Shown: positions 4,322 through 58,400 of the stretch, in pieces
Layout: every line of letters starts with the position of its first letter
Numbering within the stretch: position 1 is the first letter of the stretch
Assembly (NCBI GenBank): GCA_016199065.1
Contig: JACQHK010000053.1
Coordinates: forward strand, 1 to 63,080
DNA from: Candidatus Microgenomates bacterium
GTDB taxonomy: Bacteria > Patescibacteriota > Microgenomatia > JACPZF01
Length of the DNA stretch: 63,080 nt
Direction: 5' to 3'
The notes under the pieces: generated by a model
Seen by the model: the letters and a program-made list of their open reading frames with translations, nothing else
The model's database searches: none
What the model was told of the DNA's origin: nothing
Made by a program: the position numbers and the translations under genes

Positions 4322-5506
4322 TTAAAAAGCTGTTTCTTTTTTAACACCTGGTCGAAGAACCTGGAAAGAGAGAAAGAAACAAGCAAGTATTAAGACTGCA
4401 CCAACAACAAAAGGTAAGGGAATAGCAATGGTAGCCACTGCTCCGCCCAACAAAGGACCAACTATCATCCCGATACTTTGATAAGAAGCATTAAGTCCCA
4501 TGATGGAACCCTGAGACTTGGCATCGGCTTCTTGGGAAAGAATCGCAGGAATTAACGTTTGAGAAATACTGTTAAATATACCGATAATTAAAGAGGCAAG
4601 AATGAAAAGACTCAAGGTACGGGAAAAATACATGATCATAAACGAGACGGAAGTTAACAGCAGTGCAATAGAAAAAGCCTTTCTCATTCCCAATAGTTTA
4701 GTAATTCGCGCTACCAAAAAAGTTTGAGAAATTAAACCGACGATACCAAAAAAAGTAAACAAAAGAGCATTTTGTTGCTCGGTGATTTTTAAAACATTCA
4801 GGGTAAAGGGTTGAAAACCATAGATCATCGCGCAAGAAAAGGCTAGGAAAAAGAGTAAAGAAATAAAGAATGTCACGCCCACATTGGGATCAAAGAGAGT
4901 CTTCGTTAATTTCGGAATGTCGATAAGTTTTCCCTTTTTAACTTCTCCCATGTGCTTGTTAGTTTCAGGAAGATAGAGATACATCAAAACAGCAGAAATT
5001 AGTGTCACTATCCCGGCAATTATAAAAGGTACGGCAGGACCAAATCCCACCGTCAAAGCAGAAACTGCCGGTCCGAAGACAAAACCAAAACTAAAGGCCG
5101 CTCCGACTAATCCAAACGCTTTGGGCCGTTCTTCAGGTTTGGTTGAATCAGAGATTACGGCAAAAACGACCGGAATATTACCCGCCGTTAGTCCATCCAG
5201 AGCCCTGGCCAAATACAAAAACCAAAAATTGGGAGCAAAAGCCATGGTGAAAAAAGATAAAGCAGTTCCTAAAATAGAAATTAATAGCAATGGCCTTCTA
5301 CCATATTTATCAGACAAACGGCCGATGATCGGTGTAGAAATAAATTGGAAAATTGAATAAGTCGCAAAAAGTAAACCGTTTTCAAAATCCGATAGTCCGT
5401 ATTTTTTAGAATACGCATATAGTATGGGGATAATAATTCCGTAGCCTAGCATATTTACCACCGCCACCAGGGAAACGATCAATAAATTTCGGTTGTTTTT
5501 TAACAT
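4322..5506 (-). CDS. MFS transporter (drug:H+ antiporter-like)
   Basis: MFS motif A GRLSDKYGRRP and about 12 predicted TM helices. The track start at 5545 lies in the loop of a perfect 12-bp hairpin, so the ATG at 5506 (MLKNNRNLL) is preferred. Confidence 0.85.
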   Translation of the reverse strand: MLKNNRNLLIVSLVAVVNMLGYGIIIPILYAYSKKYGLSDFENGLLFATYSIFQFISTPIIGRLSDKYGRRPLLLISILGTALSFFTMAFAPNFWFLYLARALDGLTAGNIPVVFAVISDSTKPEERPKAFGLVGAAFSFGFVFGPAVSALTVGFGPAVPFIIAGIVTLISAVLMYLYLPETNKHMGEVKKGKLIDIPKLTKTLFDPNVGVTFFISLLFFLAFSCAMIYGFQPFTLNVLKITEQQNALLFTFFGIVGLISQTFLVARITKLLGMRKAFSIALLLTSVSFMIMYFSRTLSLFILASLIIGIFNSISQTLIPAILSQEADAKSQGSIMGLNASYQSIGMIVGPLLGGAVATIAIPLPFVVGAVLILACFFLSFQVLRPGVKKETAF

Positions 5507-5524
5507 AATCGCCCAACGCACAAA

Positions 5525-5557
5525 TACGAGAATTTTAATTTTCATAAAATTCTCGTA
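5525..5557. promoter_or_regulatory. Perfect 12-bp inverted repeat between the DUF1059-like gene and the MFS gene (operator or terminator)
   Basis: TACGAGAATTTT-N9-AAAATTCTCGTA, read directly from the sequence. Confidence 0.45.
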
Positions 5558-5573: not shown

Positions 5574-5792
5574 CTAGACTGCCACGGGTTGTAATCCTTG
5601 ATTAACCATTTGAGTTACCATTTCTGCTGTAGGAATTGGCTCTTCGGGTTTGTGATACATTTTCATATGCTCTTTAGTCATGGCTAAGTCGTTTTCGGTC
5701 ATCATCTGAATTAATTTTGCTGCCGCTTCCTCACGAGTTGCACCCTCAGTTTCCATCACCTGACCACAAGTACATGTCATGGAGAATTTCAT
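5574..5792 (-). CDS. Small Cys/His-containing protein, possibly DUF1059-like
   Basis: 72-aa ORF preceded by a strong SD (AAAGGAGGTGATAATAAATG). It has an N-terminal CxC motif and His residues. The family call is tentative. Confidence 0.45.
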   Translation of the reverse strand: MKFSMTCTCGQVMETEGATREEAAAKLIQMMTENDLAMTKEHMKMYHKPEEPIPTAEMVTQMVNQGLQPVAV

Positions 5793-6910: not shown

Positions 6911-7504
6911 TTATTTCTTATTTGTCTGAAGATATTTATATAGTTGAAATCCCAAAATGCTTCCGACAATTTCTACGGCGTAGTATTCAATATGAGAAAC
7001 CCCAAGCCCCACACCCACTGCCGGATTAAGAATACCCGCCCCGCCTCCTAAAGCAGAAAGAGTAATGCCCAAAAGTAATGATCCTCCAACCACGAAACCT
7101 GAAATTTCATCCGGCACAGATTTATAAACTACGGCAGCAATCCCAAAAGTAAAAATTATCATTCCCAATAATTCAAATAACAATTCGGTTATAAAGATTT
7201 CTGATCCTGCTGGAAAAGGCAGATTTAGTTTTTTATGGATCAAAAAGATTAATAAACCTGCCAGTAACTGACCAATAATATATTTAATAGCCGATAACCT
7301 ATCAATTTTTTTGAGAGACCACAAACCTATGGTAACCGCAGGATTTAAATGACAACCGGAAATTCCTCCAATTGTAAAAACGAAAAGAGTTAAAACTAAC
7401 GCTGCTAAAATTGGGGTCGGAATAAAAAATTGTTGAGTTAGAGACAGAAATACCACCAAGGAAAGAATAAGAGTACCAATAAATTCGCTAAGAATTTTCT
7501 TCAT
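6911..7504 (-). CDS. MIP-family channel (aquaporin/aquaglyceroporin), short form
   Basis: Two NPA boxes (HLNPAVTIG and ILNPAVGVG) and six hydrophobic helices in 197 aa. Confidence 0.85.
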   Translation of the reverse strand: MKKILSEFIGTLILSLVVFLSLTQQFFIPTPILAALVLTLFVFTIGGISGCHLNPAVTIGLWSLKKIDRLSAIKYIIGQLLAGLLIFLIHKKLNLPFPAGSEIFITELLFELLGMIIFTFGIAAVVYKSVPDEISGFVVGGSLLLGITLSALGGGAGILNPAVGVGLGVSHIEYYAVEIVGSILGFQLYKYLQTNKK

Positions 7505-7727: not shown

Positions 7728-7752
7728 AAGCTCTTTATAACAGAGCTTTTTA
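7728..7752. terminator. Hairpin just downstream of the CsoR operon
   Basis: AAGCTCT-TTATAAC-AGAGCTT with TTTT on the plus strand and an A-tract on the minus strand. It lies about 30 nt past the stop at 7781. Confidence 0.4.
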
Positions 7753-7780: not shown

Positions 7781-8044
7781 TTACTTTGACCATTTATTGT
7801 AAAGTAAAGCAACTGCATAGACTGATACCCACACGAGTAAGGCAACAGTAATTCCGCCAATTAGAAACGTTACTATGTCTAGTGGAACAACTTCTTTGGA
7901 ACTTCCGAGACCAAATGTATGAAACCAACTTTGACTGATAACAAAAAGTAAATCCGGTACTAACAGAGACAGGATTCTGCAAGCAACATAGATAACTAAA
8001 CTGACAGCTGTAGAAGCGTTGGCAAGGACGATTGGTTTTATCAT
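7781..8044 (-). CDS. DUF5676-like small membrane protein
   Basis: Two to three TM helices. The ATG at 8044 sits 6 nt after AGGAGGTG, whereas the track start at 8053 is a GTG inside that SD. The family call is from memory of similar ~90-aa proteins in metal loci. Confidence 0.5.
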   Translation of the reverse strand: MIKPIVLANASTAVSLVIYVACRILSLLVPDLLFVISQSWFHTFGLGSSKEVVPLDIVTFLIGGITVALLVWVSVYAVALLYNKWSK

Positions 8045-8082
8045 GTTTTTCACCTCCTTTCACCGGTTAATAAATCGCAGGT

Positions 8083-8238
8083 TTACTTATGTTTATGTTC
8101 ACCCATCATAAACAACATCATGGCCGGGCAGATAAGAACGAGTAAAAAGGGCAAAATATTAGGTAAATTGATTTTACCGGTAATTAATCCGATTAAAACA
8201 AAAAATGCGATAACCAACAATACTCCTAGTCTTTTCAT
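8083..8238 (-). CDS. DUF2933-like small membrane protein (51 aa), absent from the ORF track
   Basis: Hand translation gives MKRLGVLLVIAFFVLIGLITGKINLPNILPFLLVLICPAMMLFMMGEHKHK. It has one or two TM helices and a C-terminal C-P-x-M-M-x-x-M-M-x-x-H-x-H tail, and is packed between neighbouring operon genes. Confidence 0.5.
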   Translation of the reverse strand: MKRLGVLLVIAFFVLIGLITGKINLPNILPFLLVLICPAMMLFMMGEHKHK

Positions 8239-8247
8239 GTTTAAAAT

Positions 8248-9120
8248 TTATTTTCTAATTTTTTTACTAATCCAATAAAGAAAAAATATTAAACTAACAA
8301 TAAATATTGCGTTAAGAAGAATATTATTACCGTAATATCGGTCAACAAACATTGCGGCATTTTGAATCATCTTAGTAAATCCATCGATAGATTCCATTGC
8401 TAGTTTGCCTTGTATGGTAAGTATTAAAATCAACAAGCCGGTAAGAAAAAAAACCACTCCGGCGATTAAGTTATTAGTTAGAATTTGATATTCCTTTCCC
8501 AATAACTGAATAGCAAAAAGTGGTTTTCTCAGAAAAGCGACTCCCGATATTTTCCCATCCAAAAAAACGGAAATTAATAACAATGGAAAAACCATGCCCA
8601 AGACGTACATGCCGCCAATGGACAGGGCACCAAAAAAACTTGGTGAGAGAAATGTTAAGGTCAAGATGCCAATTAATACCGGCGCACAACAGGCACTGGT
8701 GATTCCGGAAAAAATGCCGAGAGTAAAAACTGATAAAAAATCCGGTTTGGAATTAGCTTGATCTCTCTGAAAATTAGGCATGGGAAGTTTAATCCCCAGA
8801 AAAGTAATAAAAGAGACTAAGATCATTACAAACGCACTCAGTAAGTAGACAATGTCGTGATTAACGAAGAAGAATTTAGAAATTGCTGCTACTCCTAAAA
8901 CGGCAGGCAATAAAACCGTAAAAATGCCTAAACCAAAAACTAGAGTCATTAACAAGACTTTTTCTTTTTCCTTAAAAACATTGCCTAAATAAGCAGGAAG
9001 TAAAAAGGTTACACAACAGGGGGCAAACAACGCCACTACCCCAGCGACAAAGGCAGCCAACAATGAGGTTTGAAAGAGCATTCCCCCACTAGGCTCCACA
9101 ACTTCCTCCCTTACTTTCAA
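8248..9120 (-). CDS. CcdA/DsbD-family transmembrane thiol-disulfide (or metal) transporter-like protein
   Basis: Membrane-embedded Cys motifs (LFAPCCVTFLLP and ITSACCAPVLIG) in a multi-TM protein. The track start is a TTG. The ATG at 9081 (MLFQTSLL), just after the upstream stop, is an alternative start. Confidence 0.65.
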   Translation of the reverse strand: MKVREEVVEPSGGMLFQTSLLAAFVAGVVALFAPCCVTFLLPAYLGNVFKEKEKVLLMTLVFGLGIFTVLLPAVLGVAAISKFFFVNHDIVYLLSAFVMILVSFITFLGIKLPMPNFQRDQANSKPDFLSVFTLGIFSGITSACCAPVLIGILTLTFLSPSFFGALSIGGMYVLGMVFPLLLISVFLDGKISGVAFLRKPLFAIQLLGKEYQILTNNLIAGVVFFLTGLLILILTIQGKLAMESIDGFTKMIQNAAMFVDRYYGNNILLNAIFIVSLIFFLYWISKKIRK

Positions 9121-10009
9121 ATCCGGGGATATCCTGGACTTGTTGTTGAATCCTACTGGCAGCTAATGCCGAGGAATATTCCTGTGAAAGGGCAATCTTG
9201 GGATCAACGTCTTTCCATTTGACATTCTGCTTCGAAAACATAGCTGCCATTTCTACATAATGTTGGGGAAACCAGTAAGAGTTAAAGGCTAATAAATCCT
9301 GATAAATTTGTTTCTCTGATAAACCGGCTTTTACCGCGAGCTGGATGTATCCTAAGGCTGCCATTCCGTGATTACAGTCAGGAAAGGCCGTACTATTACC
9401 ACAGCAGGGCCGATAAACGTTTTCGGCAATCTTTTTTACCAGATCTTGTTGTTCGGAAGTTAGTTTAATAATCTCCTGTGACGAATATAATTCCATTGGT
9501 CCTTTGGTTCCCAATGTCCAACCGCCGGTCGAAGCAAGTCTTGCCACCTCTAACCCTTCTTGTTTCATCAACCCTTCATCTAAAACTTTACTTTTATTTA
9601 CTAAACCTAAAGCCCATAAGGTATTTACCATAAATCGTGAGTTATTTTCGTTAATAACCATATTATGATTTGAATTGCCCTCTAAATATTTCAGATGGTC
9701 CTTAACGTTAACGTCTTGTGCAAAAAGTTCCTCAAATTTTTGTTTATCGATAGCTCCGGATTCGACAAGTTGTTTTCCTAAATCATTCCATTTAACCAAA
9801 GTTTTATATCCTTTGTAAGGAACGACTTCCTGTTTTAGAATTTGGATAAATTCTTCGGGATTTTTTGTTGTTTGAGAAAGTTTAGAAAGAGCCGAGTTAA
9901 ACTGCCTGGTCAACAAATAATACTCGCCGAGACCAACCAATAAACTAGTATCCAAAACAATGGCCAATACTAACCATAAGGGAATAACTTTCTTAAGTAG
10001 TTTTTTCAT
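9089..10009 (-). CDS. Membrane-anchored Cys-rich protein of unknown family
   Basis: 306-aa ORF with an N-terminal TM anchor, a CCGNSTAFPDCNHG cluster and a C-terminal GGSCGA tail. Its start overlaps the upstream stop in an ATGA. Confidence 0.6.
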   Translation of the reverse strand: MKKLLKKVIPLWLVLAIVLDTSLLVGLGEYYLLTRQFNSALSKLSQTTKNPEEFIQILKQEVVPYKGYKTLVKWNDLGKQLVESGAIDKQKFEELFAQDVNVKDHLKYLEGNSNHNMVINENNSRFMVNTLWALGLVNKSKVLDEGLMKQEGLEVARLASTGGWTLGTKGPMELYSSQEIIKLTSEQQDLVKKIAENVYRPCCGNSTAFPDCNHGMAALGYIQLAVKAGLSEKQIYQDLLAFNSYWFPQHYVEMAAMFSKQNVKWKDVDPKIALSQEYSSALAASRIQQQVQDIPGFESKGGSCGA

Positions 10010-10494
10010 TTAACCACCTTTCCTTTTAAATTAAATTCCAGTTTTGGTTGACTGGCATCATTGGTTTGTACCGTAATAATCCTCTCGACTGGTCCAACTC
10101 CGGAAGGACCATGAAACTGCTGATCAAAAACGACTATCAGCTCTGCTTCCTTTCCCGGAAGCACTTCTCCTGTCCATGAGGAGGAAGAATGCATGTTAAA
10201 CAGCGGGCTTAACTCTTGTTCCGTTTTTATTTGGGCAGAAGTGCAGGCACATGAGGTTTTTATGTTATAAAGTTTTAAAATATCGGTACCTGAATTTTTA
10301 ATTTTGAACGATTTTGTTGCCTTTGGTCCCTCGTATTTTATTTCCCCCCAATCATAGGCGTTATTTTGCGTTGTAATTTTAGCATTTGAAGAAGCTTTTA
10401 TATCAACGGGAGGTTTATTTAAAACCAATATTCCGGAGAAGACAATTAAAATTGTAGCGAAAATAAGAATGATAATAATTTTCTTATCGTTCAT
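10006..10494 (-). CDS. DUF1573 domain protein
   Basis: Signal anchor followed by WGEIKYEGPKATKSFKIKNSGTDILKLYNIKTSCACTS, the DUF1573-type beta-sandwich motif with CxC. ATGA overlap with csoR. Confidence 0.7.
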   Translation of the reverse strand: MNDKKIIIILIFATILIVFSGILVLNKPPVDIKASSNAKITTQNNAYDWGEIKYEGPKATKSFKIKNSGTDILKLYNIKTSCACTSAQIKTEQELSPLFNMHSSSSWTGEVLPGKEAELIVVFDQQFHGPSGVGPVERIITVQTNDASQPKLEFNLKGKVVK

Positions 10495-10763
10495 AAATCA
10501 TGCTGTTTAAATACTTTCATAATTTCTTCGGTAGATTTCTTAACTTCACCTCTTTTTACAAAATCGACTACACAAGTTTGGAGATGATTTTCCAGCAAGA
10601 GATAATCAACTTCTTTTAGGGCATTTTGTACAGCACGTGATTGGTTAATAATATCAATGCAGTATTCTCCATTTTCTACCATTTGGAGAATTTTTTCCAA
10701 ATGACCCTTGGCAATTTTGATACGGTGTGTCAATTTTTCTTTTTGAGAAGGTAATTTATTCAT
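10491..10763 (-). CDS. csoR: CsoR-family metal-sensing transcriptional repressor
   Basis: 90 aa with RIKIAKGHLEKILQMVENGEYCIDIINQSRAVQNALKEV and NHLQTC, giving the C-H-C ligand fingerprint of Cu(I)-sensing CsoR. Confidence 0.85.
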   Translation of the reverse strand: MNKLPSQKEKLTHRIKIAKGHLEKILQMVENGEYCIDIINQSRAVQNALKEVDYLLLENHLQTCVVDFVKRGEVKKSTEEIMKVFKQHDL

Positions 10764-10768
10764 ATCCC

Positions 10769-10789
10769 CTATCCTCCCACTAGGGATAG
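10769..10789. promoter_or_regulatory. Inverted repeat at the csoR 5' end (candidate operator or 5' UTR hairpin)
   Basis: CTATCC-N9-GGATAG with nested TCCC/GGGA tracts. On the minus strand it overlaps the GGAGGA ribosome-binding site. Confidence 0.3.
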
Positions 10790-11787: not shown

Positions 11788-12192
11788 ATGATTGCAGAAA
11801 ATACCATTGACTTCTTTTTATATCTACCTAGCGGCTACCGCTTCAATCAGAAAGATTTCCAAAAAGCCCTGATAAAATTTTTTCAAGATTTTGATTTAAC
11901 TTTTAAAGACATTGATGATGAAGGAGTCGTGATTACTCTTGCTGAGGGAGATCCCCTCAACGAAAAAGCTCATCGCGTACTCCAAAAACTGGGAACGGAT
12001 GACAAATTGCATTTTGAGTATAACTTTGCAGGGGCTGCGATGGTATTCTATTTTGTTCCCAAAGATGATAAATATATTGATCAATATAACCAGCTTTTCG
12101 AACTGTTTGGAAAAACAATAAACGCCGGTCATTCTCAAGCGCTTAAGATGAAAAAAGAGGACGAAGCCTGGACAATTGACAAATTTTTCTAA
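11788..12192 (+). CDS. Hypothetical protein
   Basis: 134-aa ORF in a clean intergenic context. No motif recognised. Confidence 0.45.
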   Translation: MIAENTIDFFLYLPSGYRFNQKDFQKALIKFFQDFDLTFKDIDDEGVVITLAEGDPLNEKAHRVLQKLGTDDKLHFEYNFAGAAMVFYFVPKDDKYIDQYNQLFELFGKTINAGHSQALKMKKEDEAWTIDKFF

Positions 12193-25777: not shown

Positions 25778-28372
25778 TTAGGGCGTCGGTGAGGGAGTAA
25801 TTTTCTGACAGTGGATTTTCGGTTCGCTCCCTTTAATAAAATATTCCGTAATCGTCGGGCATCCTTCACAGGGTAGCATACCATTCCAAGCACAAACCTG
25901 TACCGAAATTAGCTCGCTGCTTTGTGCAAATTTTTCCTCTTCTTTATCTTTCAATAATTCCACCATGACGTTATGCCAAATTGGTGCAGCTCCGGTTATT
26001 CCTGAAGAAAGATAGGGGTGCATTGGGGAGTTGTCGTTATTGCCTACCCAAACCACCACTAAAACAGAAGGAGTATAACCGATCGTCCAGTTATCCCTTT
26101 TTTCATTCGTAGTTCCGGTTTTAACCGCTACTGTTTTTCCGGGAATTACTAATGCCGAACTTGGGCCAAAAGCCATGGTCCGAGCGTTATTGTCGGAAAG
26201 TATGCTGGAAATTTGAAATGCTACCTCTTCTGGTAAAACGCGGGGGCGCGAACCCGATTTTTCTTCCTCGATTATTGAGCCTTTATAGTCAGTTATTTTA
26301 ATGATCGGATTTAGCGGCTGTTTTTTTCCTTCATTGGCAAATACCCCAAACCCTTCTGCCATATCGACCATGGTAACTTCACCACCACCCAAAGTTAAAG
26401 AAAGACCAAAACGATCTTCGTCTTCCCAAGTCGAAATACCCATTTTTCTTCCCATCTCAATCATCGTTTTTACACCAATGTTATTTAAAACTTTTACAGC
26501 AGGAATATTTAACGAATTTCCCAAAGCCTGACGTAGGGTAACTTTACCATGAAATTTTCCATCGTAATTTACAGGCGTATAAGGACGTTGTCCGGGAATG
26601 TTAAAAGAAATAGCCGAGTCATCAATAATAGTTGAGGGTGTATATCCTCGCTGCAGAGCGGCTGCGTACATGATTGGCTTTATCGAAGAACCGGGTTGAC
26701 GACGAGCCAAAGTAACATTGACGTTTCCATCATTTTCTAAATCGAAAAAATCTTGGGATCCAACCATGGCTAAAATCTCACCATTTTTGGGATTGGTAAC
26801 AAGCGCAGCGCCATTTCCTACCAGTAGATATTTAAGTTTTTCTATTTCCGTTGATACTTTCTCCTGAACCATATCTTGAGTTTTTAAATTTAGGCTGGTA
26901 TAGACGTTAAGACCCCCCTGCTCAACCAATCGTAGGCCGTATTTTCTGGCTAATAATTCTTTTACATACATTACAAAATGGGGTGCGCGAATTTCAATAT
27001 TGGGTTGAGCAAATTTTATTTGTTCTTCGCCGATAACTCTTTCTTGTTCCGGGGTCAAATAACCATCTTCTCTCATTCGTCTTAAAACCTCTTTTTGTCT
27101 TTCCTTGGCTAATTCCGGATGAGCTCCAAAGGGAGAATAAATAGAAGGCGCTGCGGGAAGTCCAGCCAACAACGCGCTTTCTGCTAAATTAAGGTCAGAA
27201 ACCTTTTTCTTAAAATAAGTTTCGGCTGCTGCTTCTACTCCCCAGGCGGTCCCTCCGTAAGGAACCTGATTAAAATACATCTCTAAAATTTCCTCTTTGG
27301 AATAAATCGTTTCTGCCCAAAGCGCCAGAACAACCTCCTTAATTTTTCTTTGAATCGTTTGTTCGGGACTTAATAAGGCGCTTTTAATTAACTGTTGAGT
27401 AATTGACGATCCCCCCTGGAGAGGTTTTCCTTCATTGTTTTTACCATTGGTAAAATTGACAAAACTTGCGCGCAAGATACCTTTTACATCAACTCCTCTG
27501 TGCCGATAAAAATTTTGATCCTCGATCGCCACTGTGGCATTTATTAAATTTTCCGGAATCTCGGATAATTTCACAAAACTTCTGTTTTGGGAAGAATAAA
27601 TTTGATAAAGCAGCGTGCCGTTTCGGTCGTAAATTTTAGTAGTGAGAGGAATCTCGCGACTACTTAATAATTTAGGGTTAGGCAGCTCAGCTACCCAGAA
27701 ATATAAAGTTAACGGAATCACCACGAAAAAAATCGTGATGATAATACCTAAAAGGAAAAATTTAATTTTTGTAAAAAAACCCACGCGTGGGTAAATCTGC
27801 CCCGATTTTTTGAAAGGCGGCACTTTGGGTTTGGCTTTTGCGAAAAGTCTGGGGAAAAAAAGTAAAACTTTAACTAAAAAATTCTGGACTAGGCTTTTGA
27901 AAGAGAATAACGTTTGGAGTAAATTTTTAATTTGAAGGAAAAAACCGGTCGTTGCCTTATTAAATTGCCGAACAATTAAACTAAAAATTTTGTTTGAAAA
28001 GTCTGTTAAAAAGTAAAGATTCGGGACGGGTAAGAAAATTCTTCTTTTTAGATCCTGTAGCTGAGAAAGGATTTTTAAATAAAGGTCCCGCGAAATTTTT
28101 CTTGCCTTGGAAAAAAAATCCTTTGCTTCCTTTCTCTTCTTTTTTTCTTTTTCAGGAAAAGTAAGTAATTTCTTAAACCTCGTTTCGAGAAAAGAGAAGT
28201 TGATTTTTCTGAATCTTATAGGCCATAAAAATAGCCATAATAAAATTCCTCCGATTCCCGATACGAAATTGAGGACTGTTAAAATAATAAGAGCAGCAAC
28301 GTTATTGATATTGGTCACCAAAGGAGCGCGATGTGAGGCAGTGTTCTCCTTTTGTCTTTTACCACGTCCCAC
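25778..28372 (-). CDS. Class A penicillin-binding protein (PBP1A-type) with a ~200-aa N-terminal extension
   Basis: GT51 motifs EDQNFYRHRGVD and GGSSITQQL. Transpeptidase motifs SSIKP, SLN and KTGTT. GTG start. There is an extra N-terminal TM helix plus a basic K/F-rich segment before the usual anchor. Confidence 0.9.
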   Translation of the reverse strand: MGRGKRQKENTASHRAPLVTNINNVAALIILTVLNFVSGIGGILLWLFLWPIRFRKINFSFLETRFKKLLTFPEKEKKKRKEAKDFFSKARKISRDLYLKILSQLQDLKRRIFLPVPNLYFLTDFSNKIFSLIVRQFNKATTGFFLQIKNLLQTLFSFKSLVQNFLVKVLLFFPRLFAKAKPKVPPFKKSGQIYPRVGFFTKIKFFLLGIIITIFFVVIPLTLYFWVAELPNPKLLSSREIPLTTKIYDRNGTLLYQIYSSQNRSFVKLSEIPENLINATVAIEDQNFYRHRGVDVKGILRASFVNFTNGKNNEGKPLQGGSSITQQLIKSALLSPEQTIQRKIKEVVLALWAETIYSKEEILEMYFNQVPYGGTAWGVEAAAETYFKKKVSDLNLAESALLAGLPAAPSIYSPFGAHPELAKERQKEVLRRMREDGYLTPEQERVIGEEQIKFAQPNIEIRAPHFVMYVKELLARKYGLRLVEQGGLNVYTSLNLKTQDMVQEKVSTEIEKLKYLLVGNGAALVTNPKNGEILAMVGSQDFFDLENDGNVNVTLARRQPGSSIKPIMYAAALQRGYTPSTIIDDSAISFNIPGQRPYTPVNYDGKFHGKVTLRQALGNSLNIPAVKVLNNIGVKTMIEMGRKMGISTWEDEDRFGLSLTLGGGEVTMVDMAEGFGVFANEGKKQPLNPIIKITDYKGSIIEEEKSGSRPRVLPEEVAFQISSILSDNNARTMAFGPSSALVIPGKTVAVKTGTTNEKRDNWTIGYTPSVLVVVWVGNNDNSPMHPYLSSGITGAAPIWHNVMVELLKDKEEEKFAQSSELISVQVCAWNGMLPCEGCPTITEYFIKGSEPKIHCQKITPSPTP

Positions 28373-28505: not shown

Positions 28506-30812
28506 TTACTCGGGTGGCCAGCGATTAATTATTACCACCTCATCGTTTTCGTGTGAACAATCAACACAGTAAGCACTAAAAGCATCTTTTACGACAATAT
28601 GTTCCTGTTCTTCAATGTTATCGGTTTGTCCGGACTTGGCGGGTTTGTTTACAGTTTTATCAATCAGGATTTTTTTCTTACTATCATCTACTTCTTTAGG
28701 CTCCGTTCCTTTTATAAAATACTCTGTCCGCGTCGAACAACCGCTTTCTCCCGGAAGCTTACCGGACAACGAACAGATTGTTATACCAACGATATCTGAA
28801 GGCATTAACGGCCACTCGTCGGGCTGATCCTTTAAAACGTATGTCATAATTTTATTCCAAATCGGTGCGGCCCCGGTTATTCCTGAGGAAAGATAAGGAT
28901 GCATAGGAGAGTTATCATTATTCCCGACCCAAACCACTGTCAAAAAAGACGGTGTATAACCAATTGTCCAGTTGTCTCTCTTGTCATCTGTTGTTCCTGT
29001 TTTTACCGAAACAGCCTGATGTTTGGGAATTCGCAGCAGGGAATTTTCGCCAAACGCTCCTGCCCGGGCGTTATTATCAAGCAGAATATGAGAAATAAGA
29101 AAAGTCACATTAAAGGGCAACACGCGTGGTCCAGCAATGTCTAGTAAGGAATGCTTCTTCTTTTTCTCCCAATTAATAACTTCCTTATTCTCTTCTAAAA
29201 TGTTTCCCTTAAAATCGGTAATTTTAAGAATAGGATTAAGATCTTTTCTAATACCGCTATTGGCAAAAACACCAAAAGCAGTTGCCATCTCTGTCATGCG
29301 TACTTCTCCCCCTCCCAATGTCAAAGATAAACCATAACGACTTTCGTCTTTAAAAGTAGAAATTCCCATTGCCGAAGCAGTAGCAACCATATCATGAACT
29401 GAATTTAGCGCCAACATTTTAACTGCAGGAATATTTAGAGAATTACCTAGAGCAAAACGAAGCTGCACTGGTCCGCGAAAATGACCATCGTAATTAACCG
29501 GGCAATAAGCTTTTTGACCAATAATGTTAGCAAAACAAGTTTTGGTATCAATAAAAACCGTTCCGGGGGTGTAGCCCTTCAATAACCCAACTGCATAATT
29601 AATGGGTTTAATGGCCGAACCCGGTTGACGTTCGGCAAGCGTAACATTAACATTTCCATCATGTTCTGTATCAAAATAATCCCGCGAGCCTACCATGGCT
29701 AAAATTTCTCCGGTGGGGGGTTTAATTACCAAAGCAGCACCGTTGCCTACTTTTAAATTTTTAAGCTTTGCGACCTCAGAAGCAACTGTTTCCTGGGCAA
29801 AATTTTGAATATTCCAGTCCAAAGTAGTTGTAACGCGCAAACCACCTCTTTCCACCAAATTAGAACCATACTTTTGCGTCACTAGCTCTTTGATGTATAA
29901 CACGAAATGGGCCGCTTTGATTTGTTCTTTCTGTAAATTAAATTTTAATGGTTCTCTTAAAGCCCTCTCTGCTTCTTCTTTGCTTATGTAATGATCTTCC
30001 ACCATTCTTTTTAACACGCCCTCCTGGCGGCGCTTTGCCAAATCGGGACGCGAGCCGAATGGCGAATAAAGACTCGGCGCCACAGGTAAACCTGCTAAGA
30101 GTGCACTTTCTGCCAGATTAAGCTGGGACGCCTTTTTACCGAAATACCTCTGGGCCGCAGCCTCTACCCCCCAAGCAGTACCTCCGTAAGGAACCTGGTT
30201 TAAATATAATTCCAGAATTTTGTCCTTACCATAAAGAGTTTCTACTAAAACCGCCAGAATTATCTCTTTTATTTTTCTCGTAACGGTCCTTTCCGGTGTA
30301 AGTAGAGCGTTTTTAACTAGCTGTTGGGTAATGGTTGATCCACCCTGCAGCTTGCGATAGATAATCATATCTTTTACGGCACGGATTACCCCTCCGATCA
30401 GGTTTACCCCTTTGTGTTTATAAAAATCTTTATCTTCAATGGCAATCGTGGCATTTTTCAGATTTTGGGGAATTTGTGATAAAGGGACTAAAGTTCTATT
30501 CTGATCAGCATAAATTTCATAAAGTAAAACTTGGTTTCTGTCAAAAATCTTGGTGGTTTGAGAAGGCGGTTGGTTAACTAATTTCTGAACCGAAGGTAAA
30601 TCTTTTAAAATTAACCAATAAAAACTAAGGACGAAAACGGTAATTAAGACCAGGGCCAGGGAATATTTTTGTAAAAAGGAAAAAAATCTTTGCCGAAAAA
30701 TGACCACGAAGGGCTTTTGATTAATATCGCTTTTACCGCTTATATTTCGGCTGGTAACAGTAGAAACTTTTTGTTTTTTATTTCGGGACTTTGGCATGTG
30801 GTAATTATACAA
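28506..30812 (-). CDS. Class A penicillin-binding protein (PBP1A-type), paralog 2
   Basis: EDKDFYKHKGVN, GGSTITQQL, SAIKP, SLN and KTGTT. It shares NDNSPMHPYLSSGITGAAPIW with the downstream paralog. Confidence 0.9.
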   Translation of the reverse strand: MYNYHMPKSRNKKQKVSTVTSRNISGKSDINQKPFVVIFRQRFFSFLQKYSLALVLITVFVLSFYWLILKDLPSVQKLVNQPPSQTTKIFDRNQVLLYEIYADQNRTLVPLSQIPQNLKNATIAIEDKDFYKHKGVNLIGGVIRAVKDMIIYRKLQGGSTITQQLVKNALLTPERTVTRKIKEIILAVLVETLYGKDKILELYLNQVPYGGTAWGVEAAAQRYFGKKASQLNLAESALLAGLPVAPSLYSPFGSRPDLAKRRQEGVLKRMVEDHYISKEEAERALREPLKFNLQKEQIKAAHFVLYIKELVTQKYGSNLVERGGLRVTTTLDWNIQNFAQETVASEVAKLKNLKVGNGAALVIKPPTGEILAMVGSRDYFDTEHDGNVNVTLAERQPGSAIKPINYAVGLLKGYTPGTVFIDTKTCFANIIGQKAYCPVNYDGHFRGPVQLRFALGNSLNIPAVKMLALNSVHDMVATASAMGISTFKDESRYGLSLTLGGGEVRMTEMATAFGVFANSGIRKDLNPILKITDFKGNILEENKEVINWEKKKKHSLLDIAGPRVLPFNVTFLISHILLDNNARAGAFGENSLLRIPKHQAVSVKTGTTDDKRDNWTIGYTPSFLTVVWVGNNDNSPMHPYLSSGITGAAPIWNKIMTYVLKDQPDEWPLMPSDIVGITICSLSGKLPGESGCSTRTEYFIKGTEPKEVDDSKKKILIDKTVNKPAKSGQTDNIEEQEHIVVKDAFSAYCVDCSHENDEVVIINRWPPE

Positions 30813-43186: not shown

Positions 43187-46126
43187 TCACTTAACTTCCA
43201 CCTTGTCGAAGGCGAAATCAAAGACTTTATCTTCACGTAACTTATCTTCAATCGTTATTTTATTGTTTTTAACTTTTGCCTCTTGAGGAAGCGATTTAAT
43301 CAGGAAAATTTCCGGCCTTACAAGAGAGAAAGAATATTCATCGTTCTGGGCGCCAAGCTGTTTTTGTATAACTAAACGATAGTTTTTGTTCTGATCAAGA
43401 GTTATACCCCCGGTATTTAGCTTCATGACAATGGTAAGTTTTGCTCCCGGAGCAATTTCAGTTAAAAACCCAAAACTGTTTTTTCCTTCTTCTGAGGACT
43501 TATCTACCAAGAGGGCTTCTTTAGAAGAATTCTTACTAATAGCTGACGTTGTGGCAACAATTTCTCTTTCTTGACCATCAAGACTGATGCTTTCTAGCTG
43601 TGTATTAAGCGGCTGATAAATCCGAAGGTAGTTTTTGTATCTACCCTTTTGAAATGATTCGGCAGAATTATTGTTTTGATAAATCAAAGTAATGGTTTTT
43701 TTAGTGGAAGAACCTGTTAATTCCGTTTCTACCTGAACTTTTTTGGCTATTTCCACATTGGCCTTATTAACACCTAAGTTCGCATCAACCACCATTAAAT
43801 AGTCTCCCAAACAATCCTGAAATTCCAAACAGGGATCACCACTTAACCTCCCCGCCCAATTAAATCTAGCCATTAAATTTTCGGCTGATTCGTCATGGAA
43901 AAAAAATGCTAAATGTTTTTCTTCCAGGCTTGTTAACAGTGAAGAAAGCAGGGTCGGGCTGTTTTTGGTTCCTTCCAGAAGTAGTTTATCTAAAAGTCTT
44001 CCCGAAAGGGCGCCCAAAAAGTCTCTTTTTTGTGTCGAACCAGGAAAGAAGTTTTCTTGACTGTAAAATGTGGCTTTTTCAAAGAGGTTTTCGGCGGTAA
44101 TGGTTTCTTGATAATCGGGCAAATTGATTGGACCCACTACCCTAACCAGGTCGGCAATTGCGTTAAGATCGACAAAAAAAACACCGTCAGCTTTTCTACC
44201 CACTTCTTTATCTAAAAACCACTCTGCCTTTTGCGAAGAAAGTAAAAAATCCGGCGACCAGTTGCTGTCTCGCAAATACCAGTGCGGTTGTTCTAAATAT
44301 TCACGTATTGGCCTGGGCGGCTCGATATGTCCAGTGAGCTGACCATCTGCTGTGTAAACGTCCTCAACCTTTAATTCAACCATTTTCCCTTTATCAAAAG
44401 TCAGAATTCCGTAAGAACCGATGAAGCCTCCCGCCGGGCGCTGTTCCATATTGTTAGAAAAAAGTATTAGATAGGTTCTTTTCCCTGATAGACCAAGAAC
44501 TTCGGGTAGAATATCGATTAATTCTCTTGCGCGGGAAACCATTAACCTACCTTTTAAAAACTGTCCTGTCCCTTGAACGATTTTTTCTCTGCTTATTTTT
44601 CCTTTTAAAAAACTGCTTTCGATATTAATGTTGGGTATTTGGCTTTGAATATACGATAGTTTGTTATTAGCCTCATCAAGATTTTTTTTAACATCGATTA
44701 TTTTTAAAGATACCCCACCTTCCTGATCTTGAGAAAAAACCGTTTTGGTTACATCATTAAAATCAGCCGCAGCTTCAATGAGCGAAGTGGCGGCGCTAAC
44801 ACCGTCTTTTGTTAACAATAAAATCTTTTCGGTTTCCTGATATTCTTTTTCCTTACCTGCGAGCGAAAAAATCGATGAATAAAGGCTTAAACTCCTTTGT
44901 ATCCCATCAACATTACCGGATAATTCTCTCGTGGTTTTTGACATCTCTGTCAGATTTTGAGAAGCAATTTGCCTCTCCAAAAGCTGTAAGTTACTTTGGG
45001 TTTTTTTAACAATTAAAAAGAGATAGAGTGCCGGTGAAAATAGCAGTAATAAGAACAGTAAACAAAGGACAGTAATTAGAGTAAATTTTTTGTTTATGAC
45101 AATTTTTCTCGAAATTGAAGAGGGATTATTTGGTAAATCAGGGAAAATTTTTTGTTCCTCATCTTTTGAAAAAGAGTCGTCTTTGTTAAAGAAAGAAAAC
45201 GTCTCCTCAATTCCCTTCTCTGGGGAGATTTCCGGATTCCAAGCGAGTTGTTTGGCAGAGGATTTTGGTCTTTTTTGCCAGGAAAAAACTTCCTGGCTAT
45301 CTTTAACCATCAGAATTCTTCCTTCACCGTTCAACTTCTTTTCTAGGATTTGAGCAAAAGACAAAACATTAATCGGTTGTGGGTTAACAAGATTAAAGAC
45401 AAAGCCTTTGGTCTCATAACCAAACATGGCTTTTAAAATACCGCTTATGGCATCTTTAATAAATGTAGGATATAACAGATTTAAACCATCATCCTCGACA
45501 ACAAGAGGTTTTTTTTGAAGTGCTTCATAGAATAATTTGGCTAAATGATTGGTCTGGTTTAATTTCATACGAGGCCCGTATAAATCCAGCAGTCGGATTA
45601 TTCGTAAATCGAGGTGAAATTTTTTGTAATATGCCGTAACCAAAGCCTCGGTATATTTTCTGGTCTGTTCGAAGAAAGAATCAGTGGATTTAAATAAAGA
45701 TCCATAATTTTCTTCTCCCGATCCAGATAGTTCGATTTTTTCCCAAAGATTTAGAGAAGTTGCCAGTAGAAATTTAGCTTCTTTCTCACGAGTTAATTCG
45801 AGAATTTTGGTAATAGCAAGGGGTTCCTGAGTATCGTCCTGTTCCAAATTGGAAAGATGAAAAATGTAATTTATTTCCTCTTTAAACCTTAAGCTATCTT
45901 GACTTAGATTGTATGTAAAATACGAAAAATTAGGATGGGACAAGGCAATGGATAAATTACTGGTCTTGGATTTATCTATCTCATCGATGCCTATTACCTT
46001 ACATTTTAGCTTCAATAATTCTTCTATTAAAAAAGAACCCACCGCACTGTTTGCACTGCTAACCAGTACGGTAGAGGCTTCTTTAGCTTCAACAAAGTCA
46101 AAATATTTTTGGGCAGTTTCACTCAT
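43187..46126 (-). CDS. Fusion protein: degenerate NAD-epimerase/dehydratase-like domain, TM segment, then DUF4012-like domain
   Basis: 979 aa. The N-terminal ~320 aa resemble an SDR epimerase, but VLVSSANSAVGSFL replaces the GxxGxxG motif. A central TM helix (LITVLCLLFLLLLFSPALYLFLIV) follows. The C-terminal part has RPAGGFIGSYG, characteristic of DUF4012. Confidence 0.65.
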   Translation of the reverse strand: MSETAQKYFDFVEAKEASTVLVSSANSAVGSFLIEELLKLKCKVIGIDEIDKSKTSNLSIALSHPNFSYFTYNLSQDSLRFKEEINYIFHLSNLEQDDTQEPLAITKILELTREKEAKFLLATSLNLWEKIELSGSGEENYGSLFKSTDSFFEQTRKYTEALVTAYYKKFHLDLRIIRLLDLYGPRMKLNQTNHLAKLFYEALQKKPLVVEDDGLNLLYPTFIKDAISGILKAMFGYETKGFVFNLVNPQPINVLSFAQILEKKLNGEGRILMVKDSQEVFSWQKRPKSSAKQLAWNPEISPEKGIEETFSFFNKDDSFSKDEEQKIFPDLPNNPSSISRKIVINKKFTLITVLCLLFLLLLFSPALYLFLIVKKTQSNLQLLERQIASQNLTEMSKTTRELSGNVDGIQRSLSLYSSIFSLAGKEKEYQETEKILLLTKDGVSAATSLIEAAADFNDVTKTVFSQDQEGGVSLKIIDVKKNLDEANNKLSYIQSQIPNINIESSFLKGKISREKIVQGTGQFLKGRLMVSRARELIDILPEVLGLSGKRTYLILFSNNMEQRPAGGFIGSYGILTFDKGKMVELKVEDVYTADGQLTGHIEPPRPIREYLEQPHWYLRDSNWSPDFLLSSQKAEWFLDKEVGRKADGVFFVDLNAIADLVRVVGPINLPDYQETITAENLFEKATFYSQENFFPGSTQKRDFLGALSGRLLDKLLLEGTKNSPTLLSSLLTSLEEKHLAFFFHDESAENLMARFNWAGRLSGDPCLEFQDCLGDYLMVVDANLGVNKANVEIAKKVQVETELTGSSTKKTITLIYQNNNSAESFQKGRYKNYLRIYQPLNTQLESISLDGQEREIVATTSAISKNSSKEALLVDKSSEEGKNSFGFLTEIAPGAKLTIVMKLNTGGITLDQNKNYRLVIQKQLGAQNDEYSFSLVRPEIFLIKSLPQEAKVKNNKITIEDKLREDKVFDFAFDKVEVK

Positions 46127-55471: not shown

Positions 55472-58400
55472 TTATTCTCCGTGACCGCCCCCGCTTGTAG
55501 CCGGACAGCCGCCTATTATAATCAGACAGGGATTAATGGTGTGCTGTGATCCATTATAAAAGCAGGACACTTCTCCACAAGTTGCCGCACTAAAATGCAA
55601 GTGTGGCCCCGTGCTTTTTCCTGTTGTGCCGGAATAGGCAATTACTTGTCCGGCAGTTACAGAATCTCCCTCATTGAGTCCGGTTGTATAAGCGTGAGCC
55701 GCATCTCCCTGAACTCCTCCCAGGTGGGCATATAAGTAATAGTCATTATTTTTTCCTTTAATAATAATATAGTAACCAAACCCATTGGCCATATATCCCT
55801 TTTTATGAACGGTTCCGTTCACAACAGAAACGAGCGGAGTAGAAAGACCTAAGGGAATATCAATTCCATTATGGCGTCCAGGCTCGTATCCTTGTGACAA
55901 AGAGCTGGGTTTTCCTCCGGTTGGCCAGGCGCTTATTCCGCCCGACGGACCAGCATTAAGCGGTGTAGTTAATTCCGCCTGACAAGAAGGAACGGTTAGT
56001 GGGCCAAGCGGTCCCAAAGAGGGGGTATAGGGAAGCTGTGCGGAATCTGATTCTCGCACGAAGGCATAATCAGTTTCTTCCCCGGAATAAACTACATCTT
56101 TCAAGCAAACTTCAATCACCGAGCCCTGGGGAATTTTATATAAAACTTGTCCTTGGGTTAATGAACCGGCCAAAGAATTGATTTTCTGTTCCAGCTCCGG
56201 GCTGTTTGCGCCGTATCTTAATAATGTATCTCTAATTTCGTTAATATAACCAATCTGTTTTTCCATAAGGGATTTATTGTTGTCGATTGATTTCAATTGG
56301 TCATTTAACTGTTTTATTGCTTGGGTGCGTTGTTCGGGTGTGGCGCCTTTTAGTCCCGCATAAAAACCTTCGGCCTGTTGGTTCAGCTGGTTGGCAATTG
56401 CCAAGTTTTTATTTATATTAATACAGGACGGTAAACTGGTTGATGTAGCACAATTACTAATCACCTCGTTTATTTCAGGGCGGTAACCGCTATAAGAAGT
56501 AGTAGCGAACCTAACAAGATAATCTGTTTGTTTGACGATATTATCAAGCGTGGTTTTTTGGTGCTGTTCTATAAGTTCGTTAATCTCCTCGTTGGTAATA
56601 TTTGGTCTACTTTCTATTTCATTTAATATTGCCAATTCCTGTTGCAATAATAAGTTTTTTTGGGTATTTAATAAAGAATCCTGAACGATTTGCTCGACGA
56701 TTAGCATTTTTGCATTCTCGCTGTAGTTTGCGACTCCACCGTTTTCAACCGCCTGGGCGAGTTGCTTAATGCTTTCTAGTGCCCGACGGTCAATCTCTCC
56801 TGAGGTATCTAGGGGTGGGGTGATGGAAAAAACGTATTGTTTGAATCCCCGATAGACTTGTTCTTGGTATCCTAGTCCGTAGCCACCAACGGTCTGGTCT
56901 TTTATAAGATCAATAGGTGTCGTTGTACCGGGTAATGTGACTTTTACTGAATAGCCCCCTACGGTAAATTTGTTGGGAGGACCAAGAAATTTAGTTTTGG
57001 TGATTTGTGAAGGATAATATTCCTCTTTTATGGTTGTTGTCCAGCAGATATCTTTTTTTTCTCCCTTTTTGAAGGTGGAAAGGGTAGAGCCGTTAAACTT
57101 CGGCTGGTCTATTGAGAAACATTTTGAAACGGCCGTTACTCCTTCTAGCCTTTCAGAAATTGGTATCCAGTAAGCAGCGCCAATTAAAACTACGGCAAAA
57201 ACTGTAAAGGCAACGACCGCGATTAGTCCGGTTACGGCAACCGCAGCAATTAAAGAGGTGCTGATTGCGGTAATTGCACCGGCAATGCCGGTTAATACGG
57301 CTGCAATTGGTGCTGCCGCCGCGGGTAAAAGTGCCGCGATGGTAGTTAGGATGGTGGGGGCAAATGAAAAAACCAATCCGGTTACAAGAGGAAAGAAAAT
57401 ACTGTTGACAAAAGGAATATCAAACCCCATCAGGCCGGTAACGACCTGAATACCCGTACCTATCCAAAAACCAGCATTAAACAAACCGATAAATCGGGAA
57501 AATAACGGAATATAGCTAAAAAGGCCCGAGGCTGCTGCTAGTCTGTAGACTGCGTAGAGTATTGGATTAAGGGCAAACCAGCCAATTGCCGCGCCAATAA
57601 GGGGTGCCAAAAAGACGCCTGGAAATAAGATCGAAGCAAGCTCCCAGCCAATTATGGCACCGGCCAAATTAGATATCCCGACTCCGCGAAAAGAAGCCCT
57701 GATTGTTTTAAAGAAATTGGTTAGGCCAGGATGCGCCGTCTGAAAATTACTAATAAAGGAATTAAAAACGTTTGGTAATCCTGAATAACGGAAGTTTAAA
57801 TATCTTGCGTACCATCCTCTTGGTTGGGCTAAAAACTGGCCACCCTCTTTGTACAACAAAACCTGTGTTTTTCCAGCCTGGGAAATTAAACTAAAGCCTG
57901 GACCTTCTGCTATTTCAAATTTTAATAAGTTGTATTCTAGGCCGGGTGCTACTCCTACGGTTTTTCCAAAACGAAGATAATCCCAGAATCTTCCCACTCC
58001 TGGTTTGGCAATAATGTTCCATAAATTACCTTTGATTTGCCACAAATAATCTGCGGCGACGGGCATCCAGTTTTGGTACCAGGGAATATATTGCTGAAGA
58101 AAAGCTTCGTAGGGGGATAAAAATTGTGAAATGGCCAATCCTCTTATCGGGAGTCGGAAAAAACTACCCACAGGAGAATTAAGCCAATAGGCAAGACGCT
58201 GTATTGGCCCTGGTCCGAGAAGACTATTGGTAAATCTGATCAGTCCTCTTTGCCACCAGTTGAGCCGGGATAATTCTGCTTCACTAATGCGTAAAGAGAA
58301 TCCTTTAAGTCTAGCCTCCGCTGCTCTTATCTCTGCCTGGTTAAAAGCACCCTCTTGTTTAAGCGTCCTAATCTCGTTAAGGGCGTTTTTATAATCTCCA

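Follow-up and report, generated by a model that had tools for sequence, protein, structure and literature searches.

What does a copper-type repressor control in an operon that encodes no copper pump? This question is raised by a 63,080-bp contig (GC content ∼38%) of a Candidatus Microgenomates bacterium of the Candidate Phyla Radiation (CPR; Patescibacteria), which we analysed as a whole (hereafter the window). Six minus-strand open reading frames (ORFs) fill positions 7781–10763 of the window and encode, in order, a CsoR repressor, a DUF1573 protein, an unnamed 306-amino-acid (aa) anchored protein (hereafter P306), a CcdA-like membrane protein, and the small membrane proteins DUF2933 and DUF5676. 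An earlier note on this DNA had proposed an undescribed 'copper buffering or redox-handling module' that has no efflux ATPase or chaperone and so departs from canonical CsoR regulons. Our comparative analysis keeps the first part of this proposal as a fair reading, and the module is undescribed in the literature that we searched on CsoR, CPR, DUF1573, copper and CcdA; the ATPase-free framing does not survive. With roughly even confidence, we take the locus to be the accessory extracytoplasmic half of a CPR-type cop operon, kept here without its pump, which would work as a thiol relay.

The module and the copper pump in related genomes

We scanned 80 species-representative loci with hidden Markov models iterated from the proteins of the window and of a Daviesbacteria locus (L001). 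DUF1573, P306 and CcdA form a conserved block across these 80 species, and tight co-directional blocks are common. Neighbours within 5 kb of P306 were counted in the 40 loci whose 5-kb flanks are complete: 34 of them have CopA, 32 each have DUF1573 and the CcdA-like gene, 26 have CsoR, and 17 each have DUF5676 and cupredoxin, against an estimated chance expectation of 1–2% for any one gene at this distance in a ∼1-Mb genome. Co-occurrence of these families with CsoR across genomes, on which the earlier note had made its proposal depend, is thus found in CPR. The recurrence of this block in dozens of species puts the arrangement of the six genes far beyond what chance would give.

The gene order in relatives places the copper pump in the same cluster. 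In L001 and in a Levybacteria locus (L002), the order begins with CsoR, DUF1573, P306, CcdA-like, a small peptide (called in L001) and DUF5676, and continues with Cupredoxin_1, an HMA/P-type ATPase, a DsbD_2/cupredoxin protein and an HMA chaperone (CopZ). L085, which also runs on into a cupredoxin and an HMA-bearing P-type ATPase, shows the same arrangement with an extra DUF305 gene, and an Amesbacteria locus (L026) with the order CsoR–cupredoxin–CopA–DUF1573–P306–CcdA–DUF2933–DUF5676 contains the window set plus the pump. The L001 ATPase has motifs of the Cu(I) type (i.e. GMxCxxC, CPC, YN and MxxSS). The contrast drawn earlier with canonical CsoR regulons is therefore not supported, since the co-directional cluster of relatives includes a cupredoxin, an HMA-bearing P-type ATPase and CopZ.

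The absence of copA and copZ from the operon and the window, as the earlier note had it, is borne out. Pfam scans of the large ORFs find no P-type ATPase, HMA protein or cupredoxin across the 63-kb window, and CopA, CopZ and cupredoxin seeds have no tblastn match in it at E < 10, the 276-nt spacer after DUF5676 included, so that no remnant of a copA, copZ or cupredoxin gene was detected in the window. Upstream synteny is seen in a relative with 96% identity (L084), whose contig stops inside P306, so that the region past DUF5676 is not covered. By gene content, the window is a minority architecture with the pump half missing from the locus, and 'no ATPase' appears as a local peculiarity rather than a defining property of the module. 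Because the ATPase of relatives lies within 5 kb in 34 of the 40 loci, we regard the module as an accessory part of a cop operon and not as an ATPase-independent alternative to it.

A VKOR–DsbA pair lies a few kilobases upstream of the csoR block in Daviesbacteria-type genomes (L001 4560–5635 and 12 further loci), which suggests an oxidative folding branch beside a putative reductive one. Neither VKOR nor DsbA is encoded in the window.

The regulator and its putative operator

The CsoR protein matches PF02583 well above the gathering cut-off (E = 7.8e-23, 81.1 bits; cut-off 22.8), and among NCBIfam models it fits that of the copper sensor RicR best (4e-14). Its ligand residues C35, H60 and C64 have a spacing identical to that of C36, H61 and C65 in Mycobacterium tuberculosis (Mtb) CsoR, and position W is occupied by Lys (K3), with no His there, so that the fingerprint reads x-C-H-C. 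Among 50 CsoR members from related loci, C35 is conserved in 100%, H60 in 98%, C64 in 76%, Y34 in 98% and E80 in 96%; we take Y34 and E80 to be the second-shell Tyr/Glu pair of CsoR. The W-X-Y-Z fingerprints reported for the CsoR family are x-C-H-C for Cu(I) sensors, x-C-x-C for persulphide sensors (CstR) and P-C-H-x for FrmR, while Ni/Co sensors bear an N-terminal His (PMC8643695). Since the x-C-H-C fingerprint stands at the Mtb CsoR spacing, the regulator is classed as a Cu(I)-type CsoR, not as a member of the CstR/FrmR subgroup that the earlier note had held out as the adverse outcome. Its release from DNA would be Cu(I)-dependent.

A G/C-tract pseudo-palindrome, TATCCCTAGTGGGAGGATAGGGGAT, adjoins the csoR start codon and overlaps the csoR ribosome-binding site; its core is unique in the window. 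A CsoR operator is expected to be pseudo-palindromic, with runs of at least 4 G or C, and to lie near the repressor's own promoter; the window sequence is an imperfect candidate for it. A CCC-N2–8-GGG tract, typically ATATCCCC-N3-GGGGGATAT, is present in 33 of 50 csoR upstream regions of related loci, and its chance rate in such AT-rich DNA is ∼4% by a rough estimate; tracts of this kind are the operator type reported for CsoR proteins (PMC10318464). The sole window match to this consensus, with three mismatches, lies at 58577–58596 on the minus strand; it was rejected as a CsoR box, being inside a gene (a 1551-aa ORF at 55472–60127) and compatible with chance (7/100 shuffles).

The CcdA-like protein and its alternatives

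By itself, the CcdA-like protein of the window has no Pfam match. However, a profile of 44 family members matches the CcdA of T. thermophilus (5VKV) with E = 9.7e-18 over ∼170 residues, and the 'CcdA/DsbD-like' label of the earlier note was right, though visible only with such a family profile. Both P21-C22 in the first helix and C132-x-P134 in the symmetry-related helix are invariant and align to the two CcdA cysteines; PF02683 is matched by 18 of the 44 members, and NCBI names close homologues CcdA. These comparisons identify the protein as a true but divergent CcdA homologue in which both catalytic Cys are conserved, and they suggest that it would transfer electrons from thioredoxin to the extracytoplasmic side. 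It departs from canonical CcdA in (i) a second adjacent Cys at both sites (83–90%), (ii) an invariant His and (iii) a C-terminal extension of ∼100 residues. The resulting vicinal Cys pairs are PCC in the first transmembrane (TM) helix and ACC-x-P in the symmetry-related helix, with conservation of 100/83/100/83%.

A Cys-pair membrane protein is found within 2.5 kb of P306 in 70 of the 80 loci. It is CcdA-like in 57 loci and belongs to an 'HCPLC' family in 12, and the remaining partners are a 'VCPIC...CC' protein, a multi-TM CPxC protein or fusions. Neither the 'HCPLC' nor the 'VCPIC' membrane proteins have a Pfam family. The 'AHCPLCVAGAG' proteins are 170–185 aa long, have a signal-like N-terminus and are encoded between DUF1573 and P306 where the CcdA-like gene is absent (L045 9019–9531, L056 2077–2625, L061 8988–9503, L067 1834–2367, L071 9422–9937, L074 9420–9956 and L079 8976–9533). 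From this position, the 'HCPLC' protein is apparently an alternative membrane partner of P306.

The P306 family

The P306 protein of the window is identical to NCBI HY345_03930. We found no Pfam or NCBIfam family for it; all 62 aligned members were scanned with Pfam and, apart from one DsbC_N fusion, gave no match, nor does any weak Pfam similarity recur across them. A sequence search of the PDB returned a chance match only (E = 0.25). By these searches, P306 belongs to no described family. The family is large: clustering at 90% identity gives at least 5,902 clusters, clustering at 50% gives 500, and relatives of P306 are encoded in at least 429 confirmed stretches of GTDB species-representative genomes. 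Its hosts are almost all CPR (i.e. Microgenomates, Parcubacteria, WWE3, Saccharibacteria and Peribacteria), and the few carriers outside CPR are DPANN archaea and Chloroflexi bins. Many GTDB species-representative records titled 'uncultured Gammaproteobacteria', 'Pseudomonadales' or 'Chloroflexia' (L004, L007, L008, L010, L011 and others) also contain typical CPR-type loci, with P306 proteins that are 55–65% identical; these titles probably mislabel the taxonomy of third-party assemblies.

Eleven columns are invariant in the 62-sequence alignment, in which mean column identity is 31%: W132, R200, C202, C203, N205, D211, C212, N213, H214, G215 and C304. All eleven are held by the window protein, and most of them make up the motif R200-P-C202-C203-x-N205...D211-C212-N213-H214-G215. 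The N-terminus consists of a Lys-rich segment and one TM helix, which predicts a type-II anchor with the ectodomain facing outside. An AlphaFold2 (AF2) model gives a mostly helical ectodomain with high confidence (predicted local distance difference test, pLDDT, 91.7; predicted template-modelling score, pTM, 0.83). C304 lies in a Gly-rich C-terminal tail that ends C-G-x; the low confidence of this tail (pLDDT 56) and its Gly-rich composition suggest that it is a mobile arm.

P306 is also found fused to other domains, whose nature points to copper as well as to thiol chemistry. In ∼20 of the 150 listed 50%-identity cluster representatives, P306 is preceded by an N-terminal multi-TM domain that has CxxC (mostly CPxC), and both Cys of this domain are invariant in 16 of 16 aligned sequences. 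We considered and rejected a MerT homologue as its identity, because only one of the 16 members has a weak match (E = 0.0024) and there is no PDB and no Pfam match; the resemblance is retained as a lead. Rhodanese–P306 fusions are present among the same cluster representatives. In P0161 a cytoplasmic HMA domain (1.3e-16) is joined via a TM helix to P306, P0262 is a cupredoxin–P306 fusion (cupredoxin 8.9e-10), and P0137, from one cluster only, combines a DsbC_N dimerisation domain with P306 (1.3e-9). The genes around the fusions are again copper-related: (i) DUF302, DUF1573 and a P-type ATPase; (ii) a CopY/BlaI-like repressor and DUF411/CopG, the latter directly upstream of a rhodanese–P306 gene; and (iii) a cupredoxin, a rhodanese and a ferric-reductase-like protein. 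P0137 is encoded at L086 422–1495, on a single-gene 1.6-kb contig, and consists of a signal peptide, DsbC_N and the P306 domain, which occupies the place of DsbC's thioredoxin domain.

DUF1573 and the small membrane proteins

The DUF1573 protein matches PF07610 (1.8e-13, 50.7 bits; cut-off 26.1), PF22544 of the HYDIN/VesB Ig-like family (6e-7) and the NCBIfam OS_HP2 (seleno)protein model (2e-13). A TM helix at its N-terminus leads into a PapD/ASH-like beta-sandwich (AF2 pLDDT 91.3). Its T-S-C-x-C-T motif (C82 and C84) is invariant, as are N67, D124, G134 and R138; M101 is invariant in a 41-sequence alignment and H128 is conserved in 98%. Where a Cys can be replaced by selenocysteine (Sec), it usually serves in catalysis or as a metal ligand. 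In those DUF1573 proteins that are selenoproteins, the motif is UGC (PMC9312934).

The DUF2933 peptide matches PF11666 (4.7e-9, 36.7 bits; cut-off 21) and has CPAMM in its second helix and the Met/His tail CPAMMLFMMGEHKH. In the copper islands of Alteromonas, DUF2933 genes have been reported beside copA–cupredoxin genes (PMC8478169). Relatives fill the slot that lies between CcdA and DUF5676 with varied Met-rich small peptides. In L007 it holds a 114-aa extremely Met-rich protein (11789–12133), and a conserved 40–45-aa 'MMGWGG...GIWLWKQI' peptide occupies it in L001 (9806–9928), L006, L008, L010, L011 and L031. The DUF5676 protein, with two TM helices, matches PF18926 (3.7e-13, 50.6 bits; cut-off 27.6); among 33 members C25 is conserved in 93% and H45 in 100%, and in relatives its gene is immediately upstream of cupredoxin–CopA. 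The CsoR, DUF1573, DUF2933 and DUF5676 labels of the earlier note thus all lie above the Pfam gathering thresholds. The motifs that it quoted are all in the translations (C35/H60/C64 in CsoR, TSCAC in DUF1573, RPCCGNSTAFPDCNH and the GGSCGA tail in P306, APCC and SACC in the CcdA-like protein, and the DUF2933 tail), and its Cys motifs proved to be invariant in homologues.

Proposed mechanism and alternative explanations

A mechanism can be built on what the analysis shows: the gene content, the family assignments, the invariance of residues, the fusions of domains and the placement of the genes in one operon with CsoR and CopA. In the reading that we favour, the operon would be induced by copper: CsoR would sit on the G/C-tract box at its own start and be freed when cytoplasmic Cu(I) bridges C35, H60′ and C64′. 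The CcdA-family protein would move reducing equivalents outwards, from cytoplasmic thioredoxin to the outer face, where two anchored clients would be held reduced, i.e. the C-x-C of DUF1573 and the CC...C-x-H of P306 plus its swinging C-terminal Cys. Reduced P306, with or without DUF1573, would then capture Cu(I) at the cell surface and/or resolve copper-catalysed non-native disulphides in the envelope, and the small Cys/Met/His membrane peptides DUF2933 and DUF5676 would bind Cu(I) at the membrane.

Several points weigh against this reading. By Pfam and NCBIfam, none of the six proteins has a thioredoxin-fold domain, and the clients of CcdA are assumed because no thioredoxin-fold partner is encoded in the operon. 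Vicinal CC at both half-sites is atypical for an electron transporter and could serve metal binding instead. A Foldseek search with the DUF1573 model returned generic PapD/ASH/HYDIN beta-sandwiches only, with no DsbD N-terminal domain and no copper-chaperone match; matches of this generic kind do not discriminate between a redox and a metal role. The P306 model has no fold match in the PDB (Foldseek best E = 3.3), which leaves its chemistry unconstrained, and the rhodanese fusions would fit sulphur chemistry as well. The CsoR box of the window is degenerate, in that the consensus of relatives is not fitted at three or fewer mismatches, and no exact 6-nt inverted repeat is found upstream of csoR. 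Finally, a locus without a pump implies that the module works either with a copA elsewhere or alone.

The main rival, unlikely in our view, turns the vicinal Cys pairs into a metal path: a CC-pair CcdA derivative would move Cu(I), Ag(I) or Hg(II) across the membrane in a MerP/MerT-like manner, and P306 and DUF1573 would be outer-face metallochaperones that pass the ion to it or take it over, so that the set could partly substitute for CopA in this genome. The double Cys at both CcdA half-sites and the invariant His, the HMA and cupredoxin fusions of P306, the P306-fused CPxC domain with one member weakly like a MerT/CopZ model, the Met-rich peptides in the neighbouring slot and the presence of the module without an ATPase in the window all suit such a relay. 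However, the MerT likeness is confined to that one member and finds no PDB match, the CcdA family is known solely as an electron transporter, and the retention of CopA beside the module in most genomes argues that the module is no replacement for it; redox chemistry is also the better fit for the Sec variant of DUF1573 and for the fusions of P306 to DsbC_N and rhodanese. A bolder version, in which a new-fold P306 with a Cys/His copper–thiolate site and a swinging-arm Cys at its C-terminus, a CcdA with vicinal CC pairs turned Cu(I) conduit and DUF1573 would make up a self-sufficient, CPR/DPANN-specific machine for copper translocation and sequestration that could run without a P-type ATPase, as the window locus would suggest, appears doubtful to us. 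We find it just as doubtful that the module serves cuproprotein maturation, with CcdA and DUF1573 keeping P306 reduced so that it can load the cupredoxins of the clusters in a Sco/TlpA-like manner. One or two cupredoxin genes in the clusters of relatives, the cupredoxin–P306 fusion and the TlpA–Sco–CoxB precedent (PMC7558416) favour this, but the window has no cupredoxin, cupredoxin is within 5 kb in half as many of the 40 loci as CopA (17 versus 34), and a repressor released at high Cu(I) together with the linkage to an export ATPase argues for a stress response.

Two further readings move away from copper. A module for handling reactive sulphur (persulphide or polysulphide) under a CstR-like sensor would explain the rhodanese–P306 fusions, the rhodanese gene that adjoins one fused P306 gene and a weak likeness (E = 0.014) of the CcdA-like protein to the DsbD part of the rhodanese/DsbD selenoprotein TsoB, and persulphide sensors are known in the CsoR family (PMC8643695). 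We consider it improbable, given that the His of x-C-H-C, which is missing in CstR clusters, is kept in 98% of members, that the neighbours are CopA, CopZ and cupredoxin rather than SQR, persulphide dioxygenase or TauE, and that the ATPase adjacent in L001 has Cu(I)-type motifs. An ordinary cytochrome c or housekeeping CcdA pathway that stands beside csoR by chance would agree with the NCBI title of close homologues, 'cytochrome c biogenesis protein CcdA'. Against it, many species keep the block together with CsoR and CopA, and none of the neighbourhoods listed contains ResB/ResC or cytochrome c genes, which makes this explanation very improbable. Most CPR bacteria, moreover, are reported to lack respiratory chains.

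Organization of the locus and its surroundings

The six genes are packed as the earlier note had described (Table 1). Overlaps of 4 nt occur at the csoR/DUF1573 and DUF1573/P306 junctions, and the remaining junctions are gaps of 7–38 nt after correction of two start codons. For the CcdA-like gene, ATG 9081 is the most likely start because homologues are 276–278 aa long. For DUF5676, the most likely start is ATG 8044; an AGGAGG Shine–Dalgarno sequence sits 8 nt upstream of it, and the L001 orthologue is 87 aa long. A hairpin 33 nt 3′ of the last operon stop codon is a possible end of the transcription unit. Its role as a terminator for the minus-strand operon is uncertain because a T-run trails the stem on the plus strand only.

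Table 1. Positions of the operon genes and associated elements in the window.
Feature	Position	Strand	Description
csoR	10491–10763	-	90 aa; repressor, Cu(I)-type CsoR by fingerprint; PF02583
DUF1573 gene	10006–10494	-	162 aa; membrane-anchored; PF07610
P306 gene	9089–10009	-	306 aa; predicted type-II anchored protein; unnamed family
CcdA-like gene	8248–9081	-	277 aa from ATG 9081 (most likely start); mechanical ORF from TTG 9120, 290 aa
DUF2933 gene	8083–8238	-	51 aa; small membrane peptide; PF11666
DUF5676 gene	7781–8044	-	87 aa from ATG 8044 (most likely start); mechanical ORF from GTG 8053; PF18926
CsoR-box-like G/C-tract pseudo-palindrome	10764–10788	-	Adjoins csoR start codon
Hairpin	7728–7748	not assigned	33 nt 3′ of last operon stop codon

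The flanks of the operon are unrelated housekeeping genes, with MurI, a phosphoribosyltransferase and an alpha/beta hydrolase upstream and an aquaporin, a GDPD protein and an MFS transporter downstream. The aquaporin gene (6911–7504) is the next gene past DUF5676, 276 nt away. Scans of the window for tRNA genes and Rfam families found nothing.

Three other features of the window were recorded. A 72-aa ORF (5574–5792, minus strand), in the orientation of the operon and ∼2 kb downstream of it, immediately precedes the MFS gene (4322–5545); its translation carries the motif MTCTCG at the N-terminus and a Met/His-rich HMKMYH, has no Pfam match and may be a small metal-binding protein. A 979-aa protein with an NAD-dependent epimerase domain and DUF4012 is encoded at 43187–46126 on the minus strand, and genes for class A penicillin-binding proteins stand in tandem at 25778–28372 and 28506–30812.

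Significance and comparison with known systems

CPR and DPANN represent a large share of microbial diversity and have tiny genomes in which the block is widely retained (at least 429 stretches and >5,900 P306 clusters); this retention suggests that the block is probably important at their exposed cell surface. P306 adds a large family with an invariant motif and a confident structure model, for which Pfam and NCBIfam have no model, and places it in a copper-linked context. The CcdA subfamily with vicinal Cys pairs could show a kinship between transporters of electrons and of thiophilic metals. In addition, the neighbourhood data correct the impression of a pump-independent CsoR regulon.

The regulatory part of the locus is familiar. 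The CsoR–CopZ–CopA operons of Bacillus subtilis (copZA) and M. tuberculosis (cso) share the repressor family and the x-C-H-C site; the operator would be of the same type, given the boxes of related loci and the imperfect copy in the window. In relatives, a P1B ATPase with Cu(I)-type motifs and an HMA chaperone likewise belong to one transcription unit. The window differs in lacking the ATPase and the chaperone and in adding five envelope genes that are outside any described CsoR regulon.

Among copper-linked envelope systems that use thiols, CcdA/TlpA–ScoI–CoxB of Bradyrhizobium resembles the proposed relay in that the Cys ligands of an anchored copper chaperone are kept in a reduced, Cu-binding state by a reductant pathway (PMC7558416). 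In cytochrome oxidase subunit II, the cysteines that bind Cu are reduced by TlpA ahead of the delivery of copper by Sco1 (PMC7558416). The Bradyrhizobium pathway is used for oxidase biogenesis, and its TlpA and Sco are thioredoxin folds, whereas the window has no oxidase genes and its module is placed under a CsoR. CopG (DUF411) is an extracytoplasmic CxCC copper-cluster protein that is linked to copA and important anaerobically (PMC7558416). Like P306, it is a Cys-rich extracytoplasmic accessory with a vicinal pair, and a DUF411 gene is upstream of one rhodanese–P306 gene. However, we found no relation in sequence or fold between them, CopG being thioredoxin-like and P306 helical and membrane-anchored. 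Mer proteins (MerP, MerT, MerC and MerF) have vicinal Cys pairs inside TM helices. The pairing of an outer-face thiol protein with a Cys-pair membrane protein recalls them, but the window has no MerR, MerA or MerP, its proteins have no Pfam or NCBIfam Mer match, and the regulator and the neighbouring ATPase of relatives are of the copper type.

The closest parallels in working are two copper-stress pathways. The DsbD–DsbC isomerase pathway of E. coli is required under copper stress, according to Hiniker et al. (2005) as cited in PMC7558416. It shares with the proposed mechanism the logic of a membrane reductant transporter and an extracytoplasmic thiol enzyme, and in one P306 homologue (one cluster, on a 1.6-kb contig) the N-terminal dimerisation domain of DsbC replaces the family's own anchor. 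P306 differs from DsbC in that it is not a thioredoxin fold and has CC...C-x-H with a tail Cys rather than CxxC. Scs, a system of Salmonella, Proteus and Caulobacter, is induced by copper and acts in the envelope; a transporter of the DsbD/CcdA superfamily reduces Cys partners that both mend thiols and bind Cu(I) tightly (PMC10907172, PMC8900818 and PMC3322552), and the ScsC/ScsB pair combines Cu(I) binding with thiol-oxidoreductase activity (PMC10907172 and PMC8900818). The likeness to Scs is one of functional analogy only. The locus differs from Scs in several respects: (i) it has no thioredoxin-fold partner of the ScsC/ScsD type with CxxC; (ii) its transporter is a minimal CcdA without the periplasmic domains of ScsB and with vicinal CC pairs; (iii) its presumed partners are DUF1573, which is PapD-like, and P306, which has a novel fold; and (iv) the regulator is a cytoplasmic CsoR rather than CueR or Cpx, in a CPR host rather than a proteobacterium.

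In brief, the system would resemble Scs or DsbD–DsbC in its working but is classed as a member of neither, because thioredoxin-fold proteins and ScsB-type domains are both absent from it. Its regulator is an ordinary Cu(I)-type CsoR, and its novelty is the copper-linked accessory set around the new P306 family. This suggests a Gram-positive-like, thioredoxin-fold-free analogue of the Scs and DsbD–DsbC copper-stress pathways.

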